From Anaerolineales bacterium UBA3071 (lineage in GTDB: Bacteria; Chloroflexota; Anaerolineae; UBA3071), in the NCBI GenBank assembly GCA_002366755.1, contig DFBV01000018.1:15508-64134 (forward strand): a stretch of DNA of 48,627 nt, in the 5' to 3' direction. Position numbers and translations under genes: made by a program. The notes below the pieces were generated by a model. The model had not been told where the DNA came from. It worked only from the letters and a program-made list of their open reading frames with translations, and searched no databases. This document shows positions 7,140 through 40,733 of the stretch, one piece after another; position 1 is the first letter of the stretch, and each line of letters opens with the position of its first letter.

Positions 7140-7388
7140 GGCAAGGTAGTTCCAGCATCGCCGCTCTCCTGAGTTGGCCCACGTGGGCGTAGGGAGGCGA
7201 GGCGGGGCTGTTACTATACGCAGGCAGGTCGTTCGGATCCGGCGTCATTCGCACCGTCAAGCCGCCCAAGCTATATGGTCATATGTCGCCGGGCGAGAAC
7301 CGAAGACGACCAGATCACTGTCTTCCAGATGGTGGTCTGTGGCCACACGTGACGCATCCCCGTGACGAAACAACCGGGTGCAAGCGGG

Positions 7389-7446
7389 CCCTGTGAAATA
7401 ACGATGGCGATGTGACTTGTACCGTCGCCTTGCTTATTTCACAGGG
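7389..7446. repeat. 13-bp perfect inverted repeat CCCTGTGAAATAA / TTATTTCACAGGG
   Basis: Arms at 7389-7401 and 7434-7446, with a partly paired interior. Confidence 0.7.
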
Positions 7447-7449
7447 CGG

Positions 7450-7561
7450 GGAGCTCGGTGTGGATCTTGAGCAGAGGAGCAGAGGTGCCAGGGTGCGGAG
7501 GAGAGTTCTCCTTTGCTCCCCTGCTCCCCATGTCCTCTGCTCAGGTTCCCCACCGAGTTCC
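7450..7561. repeat. ~110-nt hairpin of GAGCAGAGG words
   Basis: GGAGCTCGGTGTGG...GAGCAGAGGAGCAGAGG ... CCTCTGCTC...CCCCACCGAGTTCC. Confidence 0.65.
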
Positions 7562-7701
7562 ATTCAAACGCTTGGATCTTGGTGGCAAAATGTGACGACT
7601 CTGCTTCTGAAAAAAAAGGAAGCAGATCTCGTTTTCCGAATCGGCTTGCCTGCCAATCTCGGCAGTCTCCGAACCTTAACAACACCATAGGGAGGCAAGT
7701 T

Positions 7702-24583: not shown

Positions 24584-25636
24584 TCACACTGCCGCACCAG
24601 TTTCGACGATCGGTTCCCAACTGTGAACTTGGCCTGCAACCAGCAGGTCAGCGATGGCATCCGTGATGGGCAGACCGGTGAGTAGTTCAATCCAGTACCA
24701 CAGTCCTACTGGATTGATCTCCAGAAATACATAACGGCTATCGGGGGTCAGCACCATATCAATGGCCCCGTAAACCAGACCGAAGCTTCTGGTCAACTCG
24801 ATGCACAGTTGAGCGATGGGCAGCAGCAGTTGATGCACGCGGTGAGGCGTATTGTCGAAGTCATAGTGGCGCCAGTCGTGCCTGGTGCGTTCTGAGGCCT
24901 GGGAATGAATCTCGGCGGCGAAGACCCGATTACCGACCACGGTGACTCGAAGCTCAATCTCCTTCGGAACGTACTCCTGAAACAGATTGGCGGCGTAGAC
25001 TACTGAATGAAGGTGAGCCAAATCAGCCTCTTCGACCGGGGTAGTATAGATACCGCCATATCTGGATCCAGGCGGAATCATGCCTCGTTCTAGCTTCTCT
25101 TCACTGACAAAAGGGGCATAAAGGGTCTTGTAGATAACATTGCCTCCGCATTCTTCGTAAAAAGCCTTCACTGCAGTCGGATCGTTGGTGACCAACGTCC
25201 GGGGAACCTCAAGGCCCAACGCCGATGCTCGTTGGAGTTGGACCAGCTTCCGCTCCCCAAGCCGCATTTTGTCAGGGTGGTTGATCCAAAGAATGTGGTC
25301 AAGGTGCAAGATCCCTGCCATGGCCGCCTTGGACTCGGCCTTAGCAAACCGGGCGGCCATGGGCGAGAGCGCAGGATTCACCTCCACTGGATCCGGTCGT
25401 CCCAACCAGGCGCTGTGAATCTCCTGCAAGTCAAGCCGGCGGTGGCTCAAGTCCAAGTCAATGTAGCTATGCCATTTGCCATCGTGATTACTGAAGTACA
25501 GGCGCGAACGTAGCGGAAAATCCGCCGGGTTGAACCGAATGGGACGTGCATTGCGTCGCTCCAACGCCAGGATGATCTTATTGGCATGAAGGTCCCTCTC
25601 GTTGGTGAGAATCAGTACGGTAGGGGCAGATGACAT
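24584..25636 (-). CDS. ATP-grasp ribosomal peptide maturase (MdnC/MvdD graspetide-ligase type)
   Basis: N-terminal VLILTNERDLHA...IRFNPADFP, KL.QLQ.A..LGLEVPRTLVTNDP, DWRHYD, FLEINPVGLWYWIE..TGLPI..AIADLL are all hallmarks I associate with microviridin-type ligases. Confidence 0.8.
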   Translation of the reverse strand: MSSAPTVLILTNERDLHANKIILALERRNARPIRFNPADFPLRSRLYFSNHDGKWHSYIDLDLSHRRLDLQEIHSAWLGRPDPVEVNPALSPMAARFAKAESKAAMAGILHLDHILWINHPDKMRLGERKLVQLQRASALGLEVPRTLVTNDPTAVKAFYEECGGNVIYKTLYAPFVSEEKLERGMIPPGSRYGGIYTTPVEEADLAHLHSVVYAANLFQEYVPKEIELRVTVVGNRVFAAEIHSQASERTRHDWRHYDFDNTPHRVHQLLLPIAQLCIELTRSFGLVYGAIDMVLTPDSRYVFLEINPVGLWYWIELLTGLPITDAIADLLVAGQVHSWEPIVETGAAV

Positions 25637-25759: not shown

Positions 25760-26104
25760 TCAGTCGCAATAATAGTCATCCTCGCAGTCCCACTGCCAAG
25801 GTGGCCCGTGGCCAGTGAGATACCGATGGCATGTCTTCTGGTAAGTGCAGCCAAAGATGGGCGTGCCATTGCGGTTCACGAAGAGCTGTCGGTCGGGGTC
25901 GTAGTGGCCATCAAGAACCAACGGCTCTGCCTCACTTGTCTGAGCGAACAGCATGCCGAAGGGGACTTCTTCCCCATTCCAATTCAATCGGGTGCAGTTG
26001 CTCTCAGTTACCAGCACAGATGTTCTAGAAAAAGTGCCTTCTACTGCTGGATTTCGCGTAGATTCTCCGCACGAATCTGCCCAAAATCCGGCAAGACAGT
26101 GCAT
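25760..26104 (-). CDS. Candidate RiPP precursor peptide ending ...GCTYQKTCHRYLTGHGPPWQWDCEDDYYCD
   Basis: Only ORF directly upstream of and co-oriented with the ATP-grasp gene. C-terminus is rich in T/K and D/E, with 4 Cys. Start uncertain (ATG 26104 or internal ATG 25954). Confidence 0.55.
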   Translation of the reverse strand: MHCLAGFWADSCGESTRNPAVEGTFSRTSVLVTESNCTRLNWNGEEVPFGMLFAQTSEAEPLVLDGHYDPDRQLFVNRNGTPIFGCTYQKTCHRYLTGHGPPWQWDCEDDYYCD

Positions 26105-29099: not shown

Positions 29100-29186
29100 C
29101 TATCGGGAGAAGGTTTCGTTGAGGGTGTAACCCTGGCCATCGGGCGAGCCGTGCCGGTTGTAGCGGCCCTTGAAGTAGGTGAGCAT
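29100..29186 (-). CDS. Possible 28-aa peptide MLTYFKGRYNRHGSPDGQGYTLNETFSR
   Basis: GAGGAAGGG SD 5 nt before the ATG. Occupies the same position (just 5' of an SBP gene) as the other small peptide genes. Could instead be a degraded relic. Confidence 0.25.
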   Translation of the reverse strand: MLTYFKGRYNRHGSPDGQGYTLNETFSR

Positions 29187-29221: not shown

Positions 29222-29435
29222 AATCAAAAAGCGCCAATCTCTCAAGGCACAGGCGTGCCCTGAGAAATCGGCGCTCTTCGCGGAGGCCAAACCACCTTTT
29301 CGCTGTGAATTATGGCGGGCTGTTTCCTTCTCTCTCTCTCTCTCTCTTCAAGAACATCTTATCCTCCCCGAACTTCCCATCAGGCACCACTTCGTGGTCT
29401 TGGCCGGTACAATCGTTGCATGGTAATTCTACCAC
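29222..29435 (-). promoter_or_regulatory. ~200-nt leader, copy A: SD-uORF, (GA)n tract, 20-bp terminator hairpin plus U tract
   Basis: About 85 percent identical by eye to 40533-40733. uORF at 29357..29310 (MFLKREREREGNSPP). Terminator at 29226-29275. Confidence 0.65.
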
Positions 29436-29454
29436 AGCTCTCGTGGTTTGTCAA
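29426..29454 (-). promoter_or_regulatory. Sigma70-type promoter TTGACA-17 nt-TAGAAT driving leader A
   Basis: On the minus strand, TTGACA is at 29454..29449 and TAGAAT at 29431..29426, with a 17-nt spacer. Confidence 0.6.
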
Positions 29455-29518
29455 ATCCGCTTTGCCCGTGGTGACGGAAATTCTAAGGTTCTGCAGCCGG
29501 GCTGGCGGGGCAAACGGC

Positions 29519-29553
29519 GGCAAATGGAAAGCCCCTCGCGGATGCACGAGGGG
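29519..29553 (-). terminator. Terminator-like hairpin with conserved 23-mer, after SBP paralog 2
   Basis: Minus strand reads CCCCTCG-tgcatc-CGCGAGGGG CTTTCCATTTGCC. The 23-mer GGCAAATGGAAAGCCCCTCGCGG recurs at 36803. Confidence 0.5.
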
Positions 29554-29607: not shown

Positions 29608-32136
29608 TCACGGTGCGTCCACCTCTTGGAAGCAGGCGTCGGCGCTCGCCCGCTCTTCCAGGTCAGGGCGCTGCCGCAGGCAGTTCAAGTAGGCTTCGGC
29701 TTTTCCTTGCGCTTGGCTCAGCGCGGCCTGGGCGCCGGCACCGTGCCAGACGATCTCTTGGGCGGCCTGTATCAGCCAGGTGTAGGCCTTCTTGGACCCG
29801 GGCACCCCTTCCAGGTCGCGGAAGACGTCGGTATGTTGATATGCCAGCGATTCCAGGTAGGCAGCCTGGGCTTCCTCCCCCACGTATGCACGGAATTCGT
29901 CAGAGGCCACCAGTGAGCGACGGGCCGGAAGACCATCCTGCGGGATATGGTCCGAGACGAACTTCAGCCATTCCCAGCAGGCCTCGACGTGGGGGGTGTT
30001 GGCGGCGATGTAATAAGCCATGACCATGCTGCGAGGAGCAACGGGCCGACTGCCCCTGGGCAAAGGAGCAGCGCCGATGGAGCGTCCTTGGTACCTGGCC
30101 CACTCCATCCCCACTGACATGGATGACCGGATCCACATCCCGACCCTTCCGCTGTGGATCAGGCTATAATTCAGATCGTACAACTCGTCGTAGCCACCCG
30201 ACCCCGCTTCCAGAGCGGGAGCGACGCCGTCGGTCACCAGGCCAGCCAGTTGCTGTGCTGCTACCACCACGTCCTGCGTGTCGAAGCGGAAACCGGTCGG
30301 CGTTCCCGGGTTGTCCACCAGCGTCCCTGCCATCGCCTCCAGCAGGAATGCCAGGCTGGTGCCCGGCCATAGGACAACGCCATAGCGCTGCTCAGCGCCC
30401 TCCCCGCCACTCAGTTTCCTGGCCGCCACCAGCCAATCGTCCCACGTCCAGCCCGCTGCCGGGAAGAGGCCGGTCTCGTCGAAGAGTGCCTTATCGTAGT
30501 AAAGCACATCCACTGCGACCTGAGCGGGGAGCCCCCACAGGTCATTTTGATAGCGTACCCGCTCCAACACCTGGGGGTCGTAATCATCAAGGGGAAACCC
30601 GGGGTCGGTTTCAATCAAGGGCTGCAGGTTGAGCACACTCTGGCGCGTCTCCTCGGCGAGCGAGGCAGCGGTGAGGATACAGTCGGCGTGGCTGACCGCG
30701 ATCAGCGCCGCCAGGGTATGGTCTTGAGCAGAGAACTCCTCCGCGCCGCGCACCACCACTTCGATCTCCGGGTGGGTCTCGTGGAAGGCTTGGGCCAGCG
30801 CCTCGTATGTAGACCGGTTCCAAACGGGGACGAAGGTGATCGTATCTTTGCCCGGTGGTGCTGGTGTGGGTAAGGGAGCGATGGTAGGCTCTGGAGCCGG
30901 GGTGGCCTGCGCCAGCGCCTTCTGCTGGGCAGCCGACATCGCGGCTTCTACTGCCTCGCCGGCGAAAATCTGGTCGAGGGCCTGGGAGAGCCACACGCGC
31001 ACCATAACCGGCCGGACGGGGGGCAGGGCATGCTCCACCGCGTACTGAAAGGGGGCCAGGGCCTCTGCCCCGGCTGCGGTGGCGAGGGCGGATTCGAGGG
31101 TCAGGCTGCGCCGGGCTGGAAGGAGATCGGGCGGGGCGGCCTGCCGGCTGAGGAACTGTAACCAGCGCCAGGCTGCTTCCGGATGGGAAGTGCCGGCGCT
31201 GATGAAATAACCGTACACGTCCATCAGCGGACCTTTCCCCGGCAAGGGCGCGACCCGCAGAGAGGGACGATCCCGGACTGCCGCAGCCCACGAGCTGGCA
31301 AGGCCCACCGCCATCGCCGCTCGGCCCTCGAGCAGCGGGGCCAGCAGAGACTCCCCTTCTGCCTGGACCGGGTTGAGCATCACGCCGTGGGTCAGAGCCA
31401 GGTCGGCGTACCACTGCACCGCTGCCACCGTGCGGGGGTCATCCAGCATCGGGCGCGGCGGCTCCACCGAGGGGTCCACGATCTGCGCTCCCTGCACTTC
31501 GATCACTGATTCGAGACCCCCTCCCAGGAGGTCAGCGAAGCCGTAGCGCACGACCTGTCCTCCCTCTCGCTGCGTGAGGCGCTGCGCCTGGCTCAGGAGG
31601 TCATCCCAGGTCCAGCCCGCGGTGGGATACACCATCCCCGCATCGTCGAAAGCGGCCGGGTCGTAGAAGACGACGAGAGGGTCCACCCCGGCCGGCAGGC
31701 CCCACGTACCCTCCTGCCAGCGGAAGCGCTCCAGCAGGCCGGGGAGGAAATCTGTCTCGTCTGGCTCCCCGTCGGCCTCGAGAAACGGCGCTAGGTCGAG
31801 CAGCAGGCCAGATGGTCCGACCTCAACGGCGCCCTCATAAACGATAAAGGTGTCGGCGCTGGAGGCCAGTTGTCGCAGGGGAGTGGATCGCTCCACAGGC
31901 ACAATCTGTACTTCCAGGTCAGGGTGGGCATCGTGAAAAGCGTCGGCAACGGCCTGGTAGATCATCTTGTCGTCCATGGGGCAGGCGAAGGTGAGTCTGG
32001 TCAGATTGCCCACATGAGCAGCGGTCGGCGTTTTTCCTGGGGTGGTGCAGGCTCCCAGGGTGGCAATGAGCAGCACCAGCGACAAACTTAGCCTGCCCGC
32101 TCGCTGAGAAAAAGAACGCACTGTGCGGTCTGGCAT
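29608..32136 (-). CDS. Double solute-binding-protein lipoprotein, paralog 2
   Basis: MPDRTVRSFSQRAGRLSLSLVLLIATLGAC lipobox. Two SBP halves joined by a Pro/Thr/Ala linker. Confidence 0.8.
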   Translation of the reverse strand: MPDRTVRSFSQRAGRLSLSLVLLIATLGACTTPGKTPTAAHVGNLTRLTFACPMDDKMIYQAVADAFHDAHPDLEVQIVPVERSTPLRQLASSADTFIVYEGAVEVGPSGLLLDLAPFLEADGEPDETDFLPGLLERFRWQEGTWGLPAGVDPLVVFYDPAAFDDAGMVYPTAGWTWDDLLSQAQRLTQREGGQVVRYGFADLLGGGLESVIEVQGAQIVDPSVEPPRPMLDDPRTVAAVQWYADLALTHGVMLNPVQAEGESLLAPLLEGRAAMAVGLASSWAAAVRDRPSLRVAPLPGKGPLMDVYGYFISAGTSHPEAAWRWLQFLSRQAAPPDLLPARRSLTLESALATAAGAEALAPFQYAVEHALPPVRPVMVRVWLSQALDQIFAGEAVEAAMSAAQQKALAQATPAPEPTIAPLPTPAPPGKDTITFVPVWNRSTYEALAQAFHETHPEIEVVVRGAEEFSAQDHTLAALIAVSHADCILTAASLAEETRQSVLNLQPLIETDPGFPLDDYDPQVLERVRYQNDLWGLPAQVAVDVLYYDKALFDETGLFPAAGWTWDDWLVAARKLSGGEGAEQRYGVVLWPGTSLAFLLEAMAGTLVDNPGTPTGFRFDTQDVVVAAQQLAGLVTDGVAPALEAGSGGYDELYDLNYSLIHSGRVGMWIRSSMSVGMEWARYQGRSIGAAPLPRGSRPVAPRSMVMAYYIAANTPHVEACWEWLKFVSDHIPQDGLPARRSLVASDEFRAYVGEEAQAAYLESLAYQHTDVFRDLEGVPGSKKAYTWLIQAAQEIVWHGAGAQAALSQAQGKAEAYLNCLRQRPDLEERASADACFQEVDAP

Positions 32137-32163
32137 TTGTACACCCCTCTCACCATAACCATT

Positions 32164-32200
32164 GAGATGAAGCCTCCAGTTCACGCTGAGGCTTCATCTC
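32164..32200 (-). terminator. Perfect 13-bp hairpin between small peptide gene and SBP paralog 2
   Basis: GAGATGAAGCCTC-11 nt-GAGGCTTCATCTC. Confidence 0.45.
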
Positions 32201-32223
32201 GACTGTAGACACAAACAACAGGT

Positions 32224-32421
32224 TCAGCAAGGGCCGGGCCAGTCCCCCAGGCGGAACTCGCAGTAGAGGTCGCAGCTACTGCCTGGTGGGTTGCAGTCCG
32301 GATGGTTGACACAGTGGTAGCACCAGTACTCCCAGTGTTGCTGGGTCTCGTATACCTGGCGCGGCCACAAAGTTACATTTTGAAAACACAGAATAGGACA
32401 CAGATTTTCACAGATGAACAC
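32224..32421 (-). pseudogene. Cys/aromatic-rich peptide (paralog of 44112-44336) whose 5' part is replaced by a MITE-like insertion
   Basis: ...HWEYWCYHCVNHPDCNPPGSSCDLYCE... aligns to WCYYCCNHPDCLPYNCCDLFCE. There is no signal peptide, and the N-terminal 18 codons lie inside the AT-rich element. Confidence 0.5.
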
Positions 32422-32512
32422 AGATCAGGCTGCATTGCTGGCGAAAATCGAGAAAAATCCGTAAAAATCAGTGTCAATCAGTGTTAATCTGTGTCCCATA
32501 AAATGTAACCTT
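32369..32512. mobile_element. AT-rich ~140-bp MITE-like element with terminal inverted repeats and 10-bp-phased internal repeats
   Basis: AAAGTTACATTTT...GGACACAGATT versus AATCTGTGTCC...AAAATGTAACCTT. CACAGA occurs at 32387, 32399, 32409 and 32419. ATC(A/T)GTGT(C/T) occurs at 32467, 32477 and 32487. Confidence 0.55.
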
Positions 32513-32638
32513 ATGCCCGTCATCAGTATATATGTGGGGTCATGTAGCGTCTCTCGCGCCGCCGGTTAATGGCCATATCCGTGACAAATGACCCACTAGC
32601 AAGCTCAGGCTCAGTTTTCATCCGTCAAGGTCTTGCCC

Positions 32639-35224
32639 TCACCAGGACTCATAGTCTGGATCTACCTCCTGAGCGCAGGTCTCGCGCAGTTCACCGTCGT
32701 ACTCGCTCGCGGTGACCCGCCCTCCCAGGCAGGCCACGAAAGCCTCCGCCTTGGCCTGGGCCTCGGCCAGGGCTTCTTCCACCTCAGCCCCCTCCATCAC
32801 CCGATCAAAGGCTTCGTAGAACCAGTACCGACGAACCGTGTACACCCAGGGATATTCCTCGTACACGGGATTTACGCTCCCGACACTGCGTTCCAGCGCG
32901 AATTGGAAAGTCGCCAGAGCTTCTTCCCCCACTCGCTGCTGATACTCTGGTGTCTCCATCAAGGAACGCCGTGGGGGAACCCCTTGAACCACTGCGAGCT
33001 GGCCGGTCAGGAACTTGATCCACTGCCAACAGGCTTCTGGGTAGGGTGAGTTGACCGAGATTACGTAAGCGACGATCTTGTTTTGGTTCATTTTCCCCTG
33101 ACCCAGGGGCAAGGGGGCCATACCGACGCGGAAGGGGAAAGCCTGGGCAGGCATATTGCCGGGATACTCGGCCCACATAGCCACCCGGCCTGTGGATACC
33201 ATGTCCCGCTGCCTTTGAAGATGCGCATCTCGATCCCGAAAGTAGTCTTTGATGTAGAGGGGGGGCATCACACCGTGGACCAGGGCCAAGTCGGCGTACC
33301 AGCGCACTCCCTCAACCATTGCCGGGGTGTCCAACTGAGGTCGTGGGGGCCGGGTGGACACGTCCGCCACAGTAGCGCCGTGCTGTCCAAGGAAGAACAG
33401 CAGATCATAGCACACCGGGTCGAGAGGTATGTAGCCGTACTGTTTGCTCTCCCCTTCTTCTTCTCTGGTCAGGGCTACGGCCTTTTCCAGGAAGTCGTCC
33501 AAATCCCAACCCGGCTGGGGATATGCCACGCCTGCCGCGTCGAAGAGGTCCTGGTGGTAATACATCACTTTCACGTCGCCGTCAGCCGGCAGGCCCAGGA
33601 GATCCCCTTGCCAGCGCCAGGTCTCCAGGAACCCGGGATAGAAATCGTCCAGGGGTAAGTCCTGGTCGGCGTCCACGAGAGGCTGCAGGTCGAGGACGTG
33701 CTGGCGATGCTCCGGTACGTAAGGGGTCGTATCGAAAGCGGTAAAGCAATCACAGGCTTCAGCCCAATAGGGAACCCCCCACTGCTCCGGCACTGTCACC
33801 TCCACCATGATCTCGGGATGGTCATCATGAAACGCTTCGGCCAGGGCATGGTAGGGAGCCGTCTCGCCGCGCCCACAGAAGGTGATGGTGACTTCCTCAC
33901 CAGTTGCCCTCTCTGGCTTCGGCGTGGCCACGGCCACGGGTGTCGCTGGGGTGACCTGCTGGGCCTCTTGCGCCGCAGCCAGAGCCTGCGCCTGGGCCTC
34001 GGCCAGGGCCTCCTCCACACCTCGTTCTCCGGCGAAGATGGCGCCCAAAGCTGTCAGGAGTGGCATATCCAGTGACAGCCCCGCAGGCACCTCCATCTGA
34101 AATTTCTCCAGGACGTAGCGGTAGACCGCAGCCGTCTCCTCGTCCAACGAGGCCCAAACGTCCACAGCCCCGGCCAGCGAGCGGCGCGGCGGCACAGTCC
34201 CTTCCTCAGTGGCCAGGGGCTGACGGGTCAGAAAAGTCAGCCAGAGCCAGCTCTCCTGCGGATGGGCAGTCCCGGCGCTCATGGCGTAGCCCGCCGCCTG
34301 TTTCCAGCCCACGATGGCCTTCCCCTCGGGCAGCGGCGCTACGCCCAGGTCAGGATAATACGGCATGTAGTCGCCGAGTTGGTCGGAGTAGCCGGGCCAC
34401 ATGGCCGCCTTGCCGTCCTGGATCAGCTCCACCAGCCGCACGGTCTTTTCGAGGCGGGGCGTGACGCCCTGGCGGGTCAGGTCGGTGTACCAGTTGACGG
34501 CTTCAGCCATGGCTGGATCGTCCAACCGGGGAAGCGGCGGGGTCGTCGTCTCATCCGTCCAGGTACCGGCGCGGCCCAGGATCAGGGCTATTGCCGCGCG
34601 CGGCCAGGGATTGATGAAGCCGTAGCGCAGCGTCTGGTCCCCCTCTCGCACGGTCAACTGCTGTGTCACCTGGGTGAAGTCCTCGTAACTCCAACCGGGC
34701 TGGGGCGGAGCGATGCCAGCCTGGTCGAAGGCGGCTTTATCGTAAAAGATCAAGGCCAGGGTCGTGCGCACAGGCAGAACCCAGGTGCCGCCGTCCCAGC
34801 GGAACTGCTCCAGCAGGCCGGGGTAAAAATCTTCGGCCTCGAAGGTTGGGTCGGCTTCCAGGAGAGGGGTCAGGTCCCGCAGCAGACCCCGCCGCGTGTC
34901 CTGGGGACGGATTAGACCTGCTGGACCGGTGAACGTATCAGCCGCTGTCGCCAGCTTGCTTAAGATATCTCGGTGCTCAGTTCCCAGGATCGCATTCTCC
35001 GACAGCAGCCGCACGGAGATGTGAGGATGGGTTTTGTGAAAACGCTCGGCCAGCCGCTCGTACTGGGGAAGATCCCAATCGTTGACGGCGAAGGTGATGG
35101 TTACCTGCTGGGCGGGCGCAGGGGTCGGCGTGGGTGTAACTTGCGAGGAACAGGCCGCCACCAGTATGACTAAAAGCATCCTTGGGAGTAGACGTTGCAA
35201 AGATCTCGACGGTATCACTTTCAT
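32639..35224 (-). CDS. Double solute-binding-protein lipoprotein, paralog 3
   Basis: GGAAGGAG SD. MKVIPSRSLQRLLPRMLLVILVAAC lipobox. Two SBP halves. Confidence 0.8.
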   Translation of the reverse strand: MKVIPSRSLQRLLPRMLLVILVAACSSQVTPTPTPAPAQQVTITFAVNDWDLPQYERLAERFHKTHPHISVRLLSENAILGTEHRDILSKLATAADTFTGPAGLIRPQDTRRGLLRDLTPLLEADPTFEAEDFYPGLLEQFRWDGGTWVLPVRTTLALIFYDKAAFDQAGIAPPQPGWSYEDFTQVTQQLTVREGDQTLRYGFINPWPRAAIALILGRAGTWTDETTTPPLPRLDDPAMAEAVNWYTDLTRQGVTPRLEKTVRLVELIQDGKAAMWPGYSDQLGDYMPYYPDLGVAPLPEGKAIVGWKQAAGYAMSAGTAHPQESWLWLTFLTRQPLATEEGTVPPRRSLAGAVDVWASLDEETAAVYRYVLEKFQMEVPAGLSLDMPLLTALGAIFAGERGVEEALAEAQAQALAAAQEAQQVTPATPVAVATPKPERATGEEVTITFCGRGETAPYHALAEAFHDDHPEIMVEVTVPEQWGVPYWAEACDCFTAFDTTPYVPEHRQHVLDLQPLVDADQDLPLDDFYPGFLETWRWQGDLLGLPADGDVKVMYYHQDLFDAAGVAYPQPGWDLDDFLEKAVALTREEEGESKQYGYIPLDPVCYDLLFFLGQHGATVADVSTRPPRPQLDTPAMVEGVRWYADLALVHGVMPPLYIKDYFRDRDAHLQRQRDMVSTGRVAMWAEYPGNMPAQAFPFRVGMAPLPLGQGKMNQNKIVAYVISVNSPYPEACWQWIKFLTGQLAVVQGVPPRRSLMETPEYQQRVGEEALATFQFALERSVGSVNPVYEEYPWVYTVRRYWFYEAFDRVMEGAEVEEALAEAQAKAEAFVACLGGRVTASEYDGELRETCAQEVDPDYESW

Positions 35225-35284
35225 TTCATGCTCCTTCCATTGTGTCCGGCTAACCGATCTGAGGTTGCGGACGTCAATCTTATG

Positions 35285-35316
35285 GAAGAGAGAGCCCACA
35301 AAGGAACTCTCTCTTC
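35285..35316 (-). terminator. Perfect 10-bp hairpin after the His-repeat peptide gene
   Basis: GAAGAGAGAG-12 nt-CTCTCTCTTC. Confidence 0.45.
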
Positions 35317-35329
35317 TGTGGCAATGTCA

Positions 35330-35530
35330 CTACTCGCAAACATCTGTGTGCTGATTGGTGTGGTAGTTATTATGGATGTTGTCATGAACACACGCTTCAG
35401 CCACACTTGCCGTGAGCACCATCCCCAGCACGCTGGCAGTCAGCGCTGCTCCCGTCACCACTGCCGCCTTGCGCCCGATGTTGCCCTCTTCGAGTACAAT
35501 GAAGTCGGTCACCTTCTTTGGCACGTTCAT
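35330..35530 (-). CDS. 66-aa candidate RiPP precursor / membrane-anchored peptide with C-terminal C-V-(HDNI)(HNNY)(HTNQ)(HTDV)-C-E
   Basis: GGAAGGAGG SD. Lies 100 nt downstream of and co-oriented with the radical SAM/SPASM gene. Central hydrophobic helix, then four H-x-(N/D)-x units flanked by Cys. Confidence 0.65.
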   Translation of the reverse strand: MNVPKKVTDFIVLEEGNIGRKAAVVTGAALTASVLGMVLTASVAEACVHDNIHNNYHTNQHTDVCE

Positions 35531-35633: not shown

Positions 35634-36761
35634 CTACACCCAACTGTTCAAAATGGCTGCCTCCTCACGATTGAGGAGTTTCCTGAACAGGTGGGGGATC
35701 ATCTCCCTGTAGATCTGACATTCGAAGTTGAGGGGAATGTTGGGAATGGGGCTGCCGTGCTGGTTGATGCCCCGCGCCACGCAGTAGCCACAATACGGTC
35801 CGAAGGGGCAAGTCTGACATTCTGGCAACGTCTCGGCGGCCAGAGTGCGCAGGGCCATAGCCGTGTCCGACGTGAAGACCTCGTCGTAGGTGTCGCTCAA
35901 GACGTTGCCCATGATCAACATCGGAACACTGCGACCACCATCGCAGCCGTGAATGGTGCCATTATGACCAACAATGACCTGCGATATACCACAACCGCAG
36001 GGCCGGCGCAGGCACATGTAGGCGTGCGCAGGGTTCAGCACGTTTCCCAGCAGATAGGCCGTCTTGCCCTCACGGAAGCTGTGGCCCCCGCGGTTCTTCT
36101 CCAGCACGTAGTCCAAAGTGCGCTTCCAGGCTCCGACGAACTGCTCCGGCGTCACGCCAACGTCGTAGCCCGACTCATAGGCCCGCCCTAGATAGTTCAC
36201 ATATCGCAAGTACAGAATATTCACGCCGCGCTCGATGTATTCATCAACGATCTCCCTCTCATGCCCCAGCCCGTTGACGGTGAAGGTGGGCAGGAAGGGC
36301 ACGAAGATGTCGTACTCCTCCTTGAGCTTCTCCGCCCAGCGCACGACGTCCTCGTAGGTCCCTCGCCCGCTGGGATAGACCCGCTGCCGGTCGTGCACCA
36401 GCGGTGGGCCATCGAGGGAGGAGCATAGCTTGACGTTGCCTCGCTCCTTGATGTCCTGAGCGATCTCGTCGCTCATCAGCGTAAGGTTGGAGACGATAGC
36501 GAAGCTGAGTTCGATACTCTCCGCCTCAGCCCGCTGCATGGCGTAGTCCATGGCCTTCTGAATCAGGTCGTAGCGCAGGAGAGGCTCGCCGCCCTGGAAC
36601 TCGATGCGCATCTGCTTGCGGCCCTGGCGGGGCACGGAGAAGAAGAAGTCCACGGTCTTGTAGAGCACCTCATCGTCCATGTCCCACTCCTTGCGGGAGA
36701 GCGACTGCGATTTGGCGTGGCAGTAGACGCAGGCCATGTTGCAGCGGTTGGTGGGCACCAT
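35634..36761 (-). CDS. Radical SAM enzyme with C-terminal SPASM domain (peptide-maturase type)
   Basis: CNMACVYC (CxxxCxxC) at the N-terminus. GGEPLL. C-terminal CGCG...C and CQTCPFGPYCGYC auxiliary-cluster motifs. The true start may be upstream (see findings). Confidence 0.85.
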   Translation of the reverse strand: MVPTNRCNMACVYCHAKSQSLSRKEWDMDDEVLYKTVDFFFSVPRQGRKQMRIEFQGGEPLLRYDLIQKAMDYAMQRAEAESIELSFAIVSNLTLMSDEIAQDIKERGNVKLCSSLDGPPLVHDRQRVYPSGRGTYEDVVRWAEKLKEEYDIFVPFLPTFTVNGLGHEREIVDEYIERGVNILYLRYVNYLGRAYESGYDVGVTPEQFVGAWKRTLDYVLEKNRGGHSFREGKTAYLLGNVLNPAHAYMCLRRPCGCGISQVIVGHNGTIHGCDGGRSVPMLIMGNVLSDTYDEVFTSDTAMALRTLAAETLPECQTCPFGPYCGYCVARGINQHGSPIPNIPLNFECQIYREMIPHLFRKLLNREEAAILNSWV

Positions 36762-36802
36762 GATGAAGAGAGAAGGCGGCCGGTGCAGAAAGCCGTAGCG
36801 CT

Positions 36803-36837
36803 GGCAAATGGAAAGCCCCTCGCGGGCGGCACGAGGG
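36803..36837 (-). terminator. Terminator-like hairpin with the conserved 23-mer, after SBP paralog 4
   Basis: Same GGCAAATGGAAAGCCCCTCGCGG block as at 29519. Stem CCCTCG/CGAGGG. Confidence 0.45.
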
Positions 36838-36865
36838 TCTTGGCGACAGACATAAGCTCCTTACG

Positions 36866-39957: not shown

Positions 39958-40515
39958 TCACTCGACTTCGGCCAGCTTTTTCAGTTGCCCCAATGAGTTG
40001 GCGAAGCCCCTGCTAACAACGACGCCACTTTCGTTGATGACGTATAAGAAGGGCGTGCCCGGCACCTTGTAATCCCGCGCCACCCCATCATCCCAGATCA
40101 GAACGGGGAAACCAAACCCTTGCTCCTCCACCAGTTGCTGGTTCTCCTCTACGGAGCCCCGCGAGATCATCACCACTTGCATTTCGTCCATTTCCTCGCT
40201 GAAGGTCTTCAAGTTGGGGGATAGTTCAGCGCAGGCCGGACATCGGGTGGAGGAGAAGACCAGCAACACTCCCTGCCCCGCAAAATCACCCAACGTGACC
40301 GTTTGACCCCTCACGTCGGGCAAGCTGAACTCTGGCGCTTTCGTGCCCTTCTCCAGGCCCGGCGGCTCGCTCACCGCCCCCAAGAACTCCAGCGCTGCTA
40401 CGACGTTATTCTGCAACTGGTTCATTCTGATGAAAAGGCCGATGATGGTCACCATCAACAGGATGACGATGCCCATCAGCATCAGGAGCAGAACGTTGGT
40501 CTTCGTTTCGTTCAT
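39958..40515 (-). CDS. TlpA/ResA-like membrane-anchored thiol-disulfide oxidoreductase
   Basis: N-terminal TM helix and redoxin fold with a CPAC active site (FSSTRCPACAEL). Start is ATG 40515 or GTG 40521. Confidence 0.8.
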   Translation of the reverse strand: MNETKTNVLLLMLMGIVILLMVTIIGLFIRMNQLQNNVVAALEFLGAVSEPPGLEKGTKAPEFSLPDVRGQTVTLGDFAGQGVLLVFSSTRCPACAELSPNLKTFSEEMDEMQVVMISRGSVEENQQLVEEQGFGFPVLIWDDGVARDYKVPGTPFLYVINESGVVVSRGFANSLGQLKKLAEVE

Positions 40516-40532
40516 GGGCACACCTTTGTCGG

Positions 40533-40733
40533 AATCAAAAAGCGCCGACCTCTCAAGGCACGAGCATGCCCTGAGACATCGGCGCTCTTCGCGGACGCCA
40601 AACCACCTTTTCGCTGTGAACTATGGCGAACTGTTCTCTCTCTCCGCAAGTGCATCTTATCCTCCCCGGACTTCCCACCAGACATCACTTTGTGGCCTTA
40701 GCCAGTATGATTGCTGCACAGTAATCCTACCAT
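40533..40733 (-). promoter_or_regulatory. ~200-nt leader, copy B, directly upstream of the TlpA-like gene
   Basis: Homologous to 29222-29435. A 47-codon uORF (40655..40512) reads through the terminator hairpin (40536-40585) and ends in ATGA on the TlpA start. The -35 region is replaced by foreign sequence. Confidence 0.65.

Follow-up and report, generated by a model that had tools for sequence, protein, structure and literature searches.

Two homologous leaders with a GA microsatellite in an upstream ORF, candidates for pil1-type attenuation in an Anaerolineales gene island

What is the function of two homologous stretches of about 200 nt that stand at the head of separate transcription units in one gene island of Anaerolineales bacterium UBA3071? 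The window analyzed here is a stretch of 48,627 nt from this genome (GenBank assembly GCA_002366755.1, contig DFBV01000018.1, positions 15,508 to 64,134 of the forward strand), and the two homologous stretches, termed copy A and copy B, lie on its minus strand. An earlier note on this DNA had described them as a single cis-regulatory device that is shared by two units and terminates transcription by default. We find that the leader is real and was not previously annotated. In each copy, a Shine-Dalgarno (SD) sequence and an AUG start an upstream open reading frame (uORF), which contains a GA dinucleotide repeat and ends before or runs through an intrinsic terminator. The GA tract sits inside the uORF and sets its frame, a point that was absent from the earlier note. 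We tentatively propose, with a confidence that falls somewhat short of an even chance, that both copies act as ribosome-dependent (leader-peptide) attenuators of transcription, of the type described for the pil1 pilus operon of Streptococcus gallolyticus.

Two homologous leaders in one island

The claim that two regions of the minus strand are homologous was confirmed by three approaches. Copy A (29222-29435) and copy B (40533-40733) were aligned by blastn at 80.3% identity over 213 nt (E ~1e-54); the mean column identity in a MAFFT alignment was 83%; and two long exact blocks, the 24-mer TTCACAGCGAAAAGGTGGTTTGGC and the 25-mer TGGGAAGTNCGGGGAGGATAAGATG, are present at two places each and nowhere else in the window, with none expected by chance. 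A 48-nt stretch differs between the copies at 2 positions, at an overall identity of ~82%. The homology extends from the extended -10 box, TGGTAGRAT, to GCGCTTTTTGATT. Upstream of the -10 box the copies have no significant similarity, and downstream of the U-run their flanks are unrelated, as had been stated in the earlier note. No third copy was found in the window using blastn and a covariance model built from the leaders, which scored leader A at 169 bits, leader B at 176.5 bits, and the leader from a related organism described below at 110 bits. A protein encoded on the opposite strand was also considered as the source of the similarity, and was rejected by inspecting the lists of open reading frames (ORFs), with no formal test; the plus-strand ORFs run into the non-homologous flanks, so that their similarity between A and B reflects shared DNA only.

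The promoter of copy A is the textbook TTGACA-17-TAGAAT that had been claimed for it, with a TG extension in addition. Such a promoter, the strong terminator of copy A, and the limitation of the A/B homology to the interval between the -10 box and the U-run, with unrelated flanks, would also suit a stand-alone small RNA (sRNA) gene or an attenuator-derived sRNA like rnTrpL. In this case the ~200-nt terminated transcript would act in trans, and the downstream genes would be supplied by leak-through; action in trans has been described for other attenuator RNAs and leader peptides (PMC7298713). However, all three known leaders are co-oriented with, and directly upstream of, operons whose first genes leave no room for a promoter of their own. 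The block conserved between A and B, which would be the candidate seed, has no outstanding complementary target within the window and is not kept in the third leader. We regard an sRNA gene as very improbable.

A third leader and the conserved core

The earlier note had treated the absence of further copies as a point against its interpretation. One further copy exists, in a related organism: a shorter homologue upstream of a TlpA gene in the metagenomic locus L081 (JGI 3300013233). This locus was reached via the only relative (P0123, 83% identical) of the Cys/Trp-rich peptide encoded downstream of copy B. It carries an orthologous module of TlpA, Cys/Trp peptide and solute-binding protein (SBP) genes, in a neighborhood that differs from that of the window. 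Its promoter was read by eye as TTGTCA-17-TAACCT, and its uORF, also by eye, as GGAGG-6-AUG, AGAGAGAAC, UAG, followed by a homologous terminator.

Comparison between the two organisms separates the leader into parts that are kept and parts that are not. Identity is 75% (B vs L081) from the GA tract to the stop codon and 70% in the terminator, vs 45-52% in the spacer, including the 24-nt A/B block, and 25-30% in the part 5' of the SD. This pattern identifies the 3' end of the uORF together with the terminator as the conserved core. The only elements kept between the organisms are the GA tract, the terminator, a stop codon whose alignment position is shared, and the SD-AUG, which is retained in spite of an indel of 21 nt; together they can be summarized as the pattern GGAGG N5-6 ATG ... 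GAGAGAGAAC N8-12 TARTTCA N25-40 hairpin T5.

Wider searches yielded no other leader. An exact 18-mer scan of the JGI metagenome contigs gave 12 matches and an exact 17-mer scan of the GTDB species genomes gave 59, all of them chance matches in unrelated sequence; both words were taken from the A/B block that is not kept in L081, so these scans were sensitive to close copies only. No leader match was found in plasmid and phage collections, and no leader at the loci of radical SAM homologues with 68-84% identity (L003-L009) or of TlpA homologues with 65-69% identity (L084-L097). P0123 was the sole homologue detected for the Cys/Trp peptide, and the closest named homologues of the TlpA-like protein are from metagenome-assembled genomes of Chloroflexota/Anaerolineae. 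Two further observations were made on L081 itself. A 55-aa fragment resembling the TlpA N-terminus is located at the start of the locus (L081:113-280), and the full TlpA gene seemingly has a 1-nt insertion after the ancestral start region (L081:9330-9400), since ESKTNIL can be read in a different frame ahead of the called ATG.

The GA tract and the reading frames of the uORF

An SD sequence, GGAGG, is positioned 5-6 nt upstream of the AUG in A, B and L081, and each uORF contains its GA tract, with 9 units in A, 5 in B and 4 in L081. Tracts of at least five GA units occur in the 48.6-kb window only in leaders A and B. A stop codon is found at the same aligned column in all three leaders (UAA, UAG and UAG, within C(A/G)UA(A/G)UUCA), and the leader peptides, of 15 (A), 47 (B) and 7 aa (L081), are unlike one another. 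We term the frame that ends at this conserved stop the canonical frame. In each of the three leaders it is the sole frame that closes after the GA tract and ahead of the terminator, its stop being 30-37 nt from the hairpin; the first stop in the non-canonical frames lies within the 5' arm, within the 3' arm, or past the hairpin.

Two of the leaders are in the canonical frame, here termed OFF: leader A, with 9 GA units and the conserved UAA 30 nt before the hairpin, and the L081 leader, with 4 units and the conserved UAG. Leader B, with 5 units, is one unit out of frame (ON). Its uORF crosses the terminator, which was likewise absent from the earlier note, and after 47 codons reaches a stop within the AUGA on the TlpA start codon. 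Judged by sequence, a change of plus or minus one GA unit would shift A or L081 to a frame that runs into the terminator, and B back to the short frame.

Terminators and the search for alternative pairings

The U-run of copy B ends 18 nt before the TlpA start, and transcription of TlpA thus requires read-through of the terminator. The hairpins of A, B and L081 span 24-26 bp and precede a U-run. Homologous leaders, their location at the starts of transcription units, and a strong intrinsic terminator justify, as far as the anatomy goes, the description of one shared device with termination as its default. The earlier note had also listed differences between the hairpins (G.U to G-C, U-A to U.G, and one G.G mismatch in B) and taken them as a sign of selection on structure. 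The list is correct, but the changes proved to be one-sided and not paired compensatory ones. Over the three sequences, pairing is kept in 94.7% of 75 cells; among the 25 terminator pairs, 12 are invariant, 9 have one-sided changes with pairing kept, 3 have one unpaired cell, and 1 is compensatory (U-A / U.G / C-G). A shuffle control on terminator pairing has no power with three sequences. With a single truly compensatory pair, confined to the terminator, and a powerless control, the claim of selection on structure is weak.

We assessed whether the leaders contain any structure besides the terminator. They fold better than their shuffles (z scores of -4.4, -3.8 and -3.3), mostly owing to the terminator. 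An antiterminator predicted for copy A, in which segment U1 (GGUGCCUGAUGGGAAG) pairs with the terminator 5' arm (T5), was equalled by 30 (A), 859 (B) and 490 (L081) of 1000 shuffles. A long-range helix, P1, formed by GGCCAAGACCAC and GUGGUUUGGCC around the uORF was equalled by 136, 816 and 153 of 1000 in A, B and L081, respectively, and pairing of the spacer with the terminator 5' arm was as good in 938 (A) and 1361 (B) of 2000. All three candidates were rejected. In L081, the segment AUGCCAAGAAG, located just past the stop codon, pairs with the terminator 5' arm at -15.7 kcal/mol, which 77 of 2000 shuffles matched. Overall, the antiterminator candidates were not better than shuffles in A and B and marginal in L081, and their positions are not conserved. 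A and B can form a local hairpin, UUGGC(C/G)UC-CGCGAA-GAGCGCCGA, that would sequester the base of the terminator. The three-leader comparison and the shuffle tests revealed no supported helix other than the terminator.

These results bear on the possibility that the leader binds a ligand or a protein, as a novel riboswitch or as the target of an antiterminator protein, with the conserved RNA as the sensor and an SD-AUG that would either be incidental or belong to the expression platform. Riboswitch leaders typically combine a strong promoter with a strong terminator after it, and leaders and riboswitches in Rfam share with the present ones the 5' position and the terminator as expression platform. 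The 48-nt stretch with only 2 differences between A and B and the better-than-shuffled folding, though mostly due to the terminator, can be cited in its favor. In contrast to the Rfam families, however, the leaders have no match to a covariance model and no conserved aptamer. Scanning the whole window against Rfam 15 at the gathering score gave 0 matches, in agreement with the earlier statement that the element resembles no familiar riboswitch consensus, and the permissive E-value mode applied to copy A and L081 gave chance-level matches only. The A/B block and the 5' half are the parts that are poorly kept in L081 (45-52% and 25-30%, as above). Among the window proteins we found no RNA-binding antiterminator (ANTAR, CAT_RBD or similar); in the vicinity there are only an extracytoplasmic function (ECF) sigma factor and a DUF4367 protein. 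The loss of the A/B block in L081, together with the lack of a helix or antiterminator above shuffles, makes a ligand-binding RNA unlikely, and we consider a binding leader of either kind quite improbable.

A classical sensory leader-peptide attenuator has to be weighed next. Here the uORF would report the speed of translation, through tandem rare AGA and GAG codons or through ribosome-targeting stress, the position of the ribosome would select the terminator or an alternative pairing, and the GA tract would act as codons rather than as a mutable repeat. The classical ribosome-dependent attenuators (trp, his, the ilvB-II uORF, PMC10272879; the antibiotic-sensing topAI, PMC12121999) likewise have a translated leader ORF before a conditional terminator, with the ribosome position being decisive, and the order of promoter, SD-uORF and terminator is the same. 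AGA is the rarest arginine codon in the window genes (5.7% of Arg codons) and yet is present in the uORFs, with 3, 2 and 1 AGA codons in A, B and L081. In L081, a ribosome at the stop codon would cover AUGCCAAGAAG, a trp-like geometry, and the local hairpin of A and B is able to sequester the terminator base. However, classical attenuators have a defined antiterminator/terminator pair and codons tied to their pathway, whereas the candidates for alternative pairing here are not the same in the two organisms and, in A and B, do not surpass shuffled sequences, and the Arg/Glu codons have no evident link to the operons: no arginine-related genes were found downstream of the leaders among the annotated window genes. 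In addition, B has its uORF out of frame, and L081 has one AGA only. A sensory attenuator is in our judgment unlikely, and the departure of the leaders from trp-type attenuators consists only in that no antiterminator is demonstrable.

A pil1-type attenuator as the favored reading

The leader of the S. gallolyticus pil1 operon contains a ribosome-binding site (RBS) and an ATG-initiated ORF with GCAGA repeats, whose in-frame stop is 39 bp before a hairpin. Out-of-frame changes in the repeats lengthen the peptide, so that the stop is in or after the hairpin; the ribosomes then prevent hairpin formation and transcription increases, a combination of phase variation with an attenuation-like mechanism that involves no antiterminator (Danne et al., 2014, PMC3894217). 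The present leaders resemble this system in having a promoter, an RBS and ATG-started leader ORF with an internal short tandem repeat whose unit is not divisible by 3, and a stem-loop terminator that is premature, before the first structural gene. They resemble it also in the frame-dependent stop, which lies ~30-40 nt before the hairpin in one frame and in or after it in the others, in that no antiterminator hairpin is demonstrable, and in that the sequence of the leader peptide itself is apparently unimportant. There are also differences. The repeat unit is 2 nt (GA x4-9) here and 5 nt (GCAGA x22) in pil1; the host is Chloroflexota-like rather than a member of the Firmicutes; the regulated genes belong to secreted-peptide, oxidoreductase, SBP and radical SAM modules rather than to pili; and, unlike in pil1, there are two copies in one island. 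For the present leaders, repeat variation and translation dependence are predictions drawn from pil1. There is no sequence homology to pil1, so that the leaders would be its analogues and not its relatives.

By this analogy, transcription from the promoter would yield a short transcript on which the SD and AUG start a uORF holding the GA microsatellite, with a very stable intrinsic terminator after it. In the canonical frame, as in A and L081, translation would end at the conserved UAA or UAG, the ribosomes would leave, the hairpin would form, and transcription would stop (OFF). In the other two frames, where the first stop is in or past the hairpin, a ribosome trailing the polymerase would occupy the arms of the hairpin and suppress termination (ON). 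The GA tract would set the frame, and a unit gained or lost by slipped-strand mispairing would toggle between the states. Copy B, one unit off the OFF frame, would be translated through the terminator to the AUGA on the TlpA start. Four points are inferred from the analogy: translation of the uORF, efficient termination, the suppression of this termination by ribosomes, and variation of the tract in the population.

The pil1 model would explain why no alternative structure is detectable, why the SD, the repeat, the stop and the hairpin are kept while the peptide is not, and why the UAG is retained in B though it is out of frame. Dinucleotide repeats that shift a frame are also known from contingency genes with CT/GA repeats (H. 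pylori oipA, PMC10564699; the AG repeats of Mycoplasma mod, PMC3498834), where the repeat is likewise in a 5' coding position. In those genes, however, the repeat is part of the structural gene and a frameshift truncates the protein, whereas here it is in a non-conserved uORF and its presumed effect is on termination.

It is a separate question whether the tract works as a contingency switch, in which GA slippage, or a ribosomal slippage of plus or minus 2 on AGA-GAG at the rare AGA, would toggle the modules (secreted-peptide and HXS-related ones and those for ribosomally synthesized and post-translationally modified peptides, RiPPs) of a free-living bacterium stochastically and independently, with A being OFF and B being ON in this population. 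This would be the second known case of attenuation by a repeat in a leader peptide, now from a distant phylum and unconnected with host-pathogen biology. We consider it doubtful. The repeat number differs across the paralogues and the orthologue (9, 5 and 4), with B in the other frame, while assemblies of the same locus are identical.

Several points weigh against the pil1-type reading. When the spacers were shuffled, exactly one frame closed before the terminator was the commonest outcome (52-64%), and the frame pattern is thus statistically uninformative. Copy A, including its GA tract, is identical in the JGI assembly (in which the contig 3300027742 Ga0209121_10000204 corresponds to the window) and in the independent Logan assembly SRR1313318, and copy B is likewise identical in the JGI and SRR5324168 assemblies, although consensus assemblies are blind to minor repeat-length variants. 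Hypermutable tracts are usually longer than (GA)5 and (GA)4. Only three leaders are available; they represent two related organisms, and A and B cannot be counted as independent. No -35 box of copy B was recognised by the promoter search. Finally, the island shows decay in the form of a split radical SAM gene and inserted insertion sequence (IS) elements, so that B may owe its shifted frame to degeneration and not to a switch state. The anatomy of the leaders has good sequence evidence, and the pattern of conservation and the frame states were read directly from the sequences, whereas the mechanism is based on analogy.

If the pil1-type mechanism is correct, repeat-driven leader-peptide attenuation, so far described for one streptococcal pilus operon, would be an independently evolved and general solution, by which environmental bacteria would diversify the expression of peptide-modification modules and possibly of modules related to phage defense (HXS-like). 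It would also provide a search signature, namely an SD-AUG, a repeat unit not divisible by 3, and a stop 30-40 nt before a strong terminator, with the other two frames open into the hairpin. If the mechanism fails, what remains is a lineage-restricted, attenuator-like leader that has had no annotation and is located where transcription units begin in a RiPP island with extensive rearrangement.

Genomic context of the leaders

The coordinates of the leaders and their neighbors are listed in Table 1. With respect to the downstream genes, the earlier note correctly placed copy B before the TlpA-like gene; copy A, which it had placed directly before an SBP gene, is instead followed first by a 28-codon ORF. 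By sequence comparison, this ORF is the N-terminal remnant of an HxsB-like radical SAM gene. In a tblastn search with a 479-aa relative (P0002), residues 1-27 matched at 29186-29106 (63%, E 1e-6) and residues 79-479 at 36836-35637, with residues 28-78 missing. The two halves are 7.6 kb apart, and the body, which lacks the first ~78 residues, is located directly behind the terminator of the 857-aa SBP gene as a 375-aa ORF that starts from an internal Met just before the CxxxCxxC motif. The protein scores 306 bits, below the HxsB cutoff of 370. In relatives, the radical SAM enzyme starts with (M/V)LTYFKGR and is encoded behind plain promoters. Leader A was formerly at the head of an HxsB-like radical SAM operon. 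A recent study reports that the HXS system is an antiphage defense (PMC13128918).

The terminator and tail (GGGGCTTTCCATTTGCC) next to the radical SAM body are repeated before promoter A. The repetition of this element and the split radical SAM gene indicate that the island was duplicated and rearranged, and the same arrangement of genes was found in independent Logan assemblies. Leader B heads a portable module of TlpA, Cys/Trp peptide and SBP genes that ends at its own terminator, and the island as a whole is built from repeatedly duplicated and rearranged modules. We also noted that the terminator and tail (CCCTCGTGC..CGCGAGGGGCTTTCCATTTGCC) follow two different double-SBP genes, at 36817-36850 and 29515-29550 of the minus strand, and that the tail at 36817-36850 runs into radical SAM codons (..I C Q R Y G F..), resembling a recombination or deletion junction.

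Given this history, the leader might be a decaying relic, once functional, whose copies, B especially, are drifting in a rearranged, IS-ridden island and have no specific regulation now. Copy A stands before a fragment of a radical SAM gene whose body has lost its beginning, and copy B lies beside nested IS elements and has lost its -35 box and its uORF frame; no homologue beyond L081 appeared in the scans made. The N-terminal part of the DUF772 transposase (40828-41589) is interrupted by a second IS element with 22-nt inverted repeats (41573-41594 / 43354-43375) and a 569-aa DDE_Tnp_1_6 transposase. However, both terminators, SD-AUGs and -10 boxes are intact at ~80% overall identity, a second organism retains the leader ahead of the orthologous module, and the shifted frame of B meets no stop for 47 codons, until precisely the TlpA start codon. 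We give a relic only a slender chance.

Table 1. Leaders A and B and neighboring features, in coordinates of the window
Feature	Coordinates	Strand	Description
Leader A transcript, approximate	29222..29425	-	after -10 box to end of U-run/GAUU
Promoter A	29426..29454	-	TTGACA, 17-nt spacer with TG extension, TAGAAT; 11/12 matches
uORF A	29310..29357	-	GGAGG-5 nt-AUG, MFLKREREREGNSPP, UAA; stop 30 nt before terminator stem (OFF frame)
(GA)9 microsatellite	29329..29346	-	within uORF A, read as AGA GAG codons
Intrinsic terminator A	29225..29280	-	26-bp perfect hairpin, GCCU loop, U5 (UUUUUG)
Leader B transcript, approximate	40533..40723	-	
Extended -10 box of copy B	40724..40732	-	TGgTAGGAT
uORF B	40512..40655	-	47 codons, through whole terminator, ends AUGA overlapping TlpA start codon (ON frame)
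(GA)5 tract	40635..40644	-	within uORF B; one unit fewer would give canonical frame
UAG at conserved stop position	40621..40623	-	CAUAGUUCA; out of frame with copy B AUG
Intrinsic terminator B	40535..40590	-	13+11 bp, one G.G mismatch, GCUC loop, U5 (UUUUUG)
Terminator upstream of promoter A	about 29515..29550	-	
28-codon ORF	29100..29186	-	MLTYFKGRYNRHGSPDGQGYTLNETFSR*, own SD; tblastn 63% over 27 aa, E 1e-6
Double-SBP lipoprotein, 897 aa	26387..29080	-	first intact gene after leader A
Possible 114-aa precursor	25760..26104	-	upstream of ATP-grasp maturase
ATP-grasp RiPP maturase	24584..25636	-	MvdD/SAV_5884 type
ABC exporter	22741..24690	-	
Two more double-SBP genes	29608..35299	-	
His-rich 66-aa peptide	35330..35530	-	weakly HxsA3-like
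Radical SAM body	35634..36836	-	HxsB-like
Terminator closing unit B	36817..36837	-	
Double-SBP protein, 857 aa	36866..39439	-	last gene of unit B
Secreted Cys/Trp-rich peptide, 102 aa	39560..39868	-	
TlpA/MauD-like thiol-disulfide oxidoreductase	39958..40515	-	first gene after leader B
Nested IS elements	40828-43375	+	just upstream of copy B
Cys-rich secreted 74-aa peptide	about 44100-44350 = L001:2426-2650	-	beside ECF sigma factor and DUF4367 protein, upstream of IS elements

Genes for peptide maturation are abundant in the island. In relatives, a gene of 82-99 aa regularly follows the TlpA-like gene (L084:4661-4909, L087:4648-4944, L095:2527-2826 and 7302-7589, L096:866-1153). Those of L084 and L087 were translated, and both have a signal-peptide-like N-terminus; the L087 product is Cys/Trp-rich and that of L084 is not. 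These arrangements point to an oxidoreductase and a small secreted peptide as conserved partners. Some of the loci of TlpA relatives also contain PadR-ABC ... FtsX genes. Leaderless TlpA-peptide(-SBP) modules in other Chloroflexota-like contigs, L091 (3740-3790), L092, L093 and L095 (1810-1850, 6590-6630), have a poly-G promoter spacer, TTGACA..G11-14..TATAAT, and simple repeats in regulatory DNA may recur throughout this family of modules. The two paralogous promoters of L095 differ in the length of a G run, G6 vs G8.

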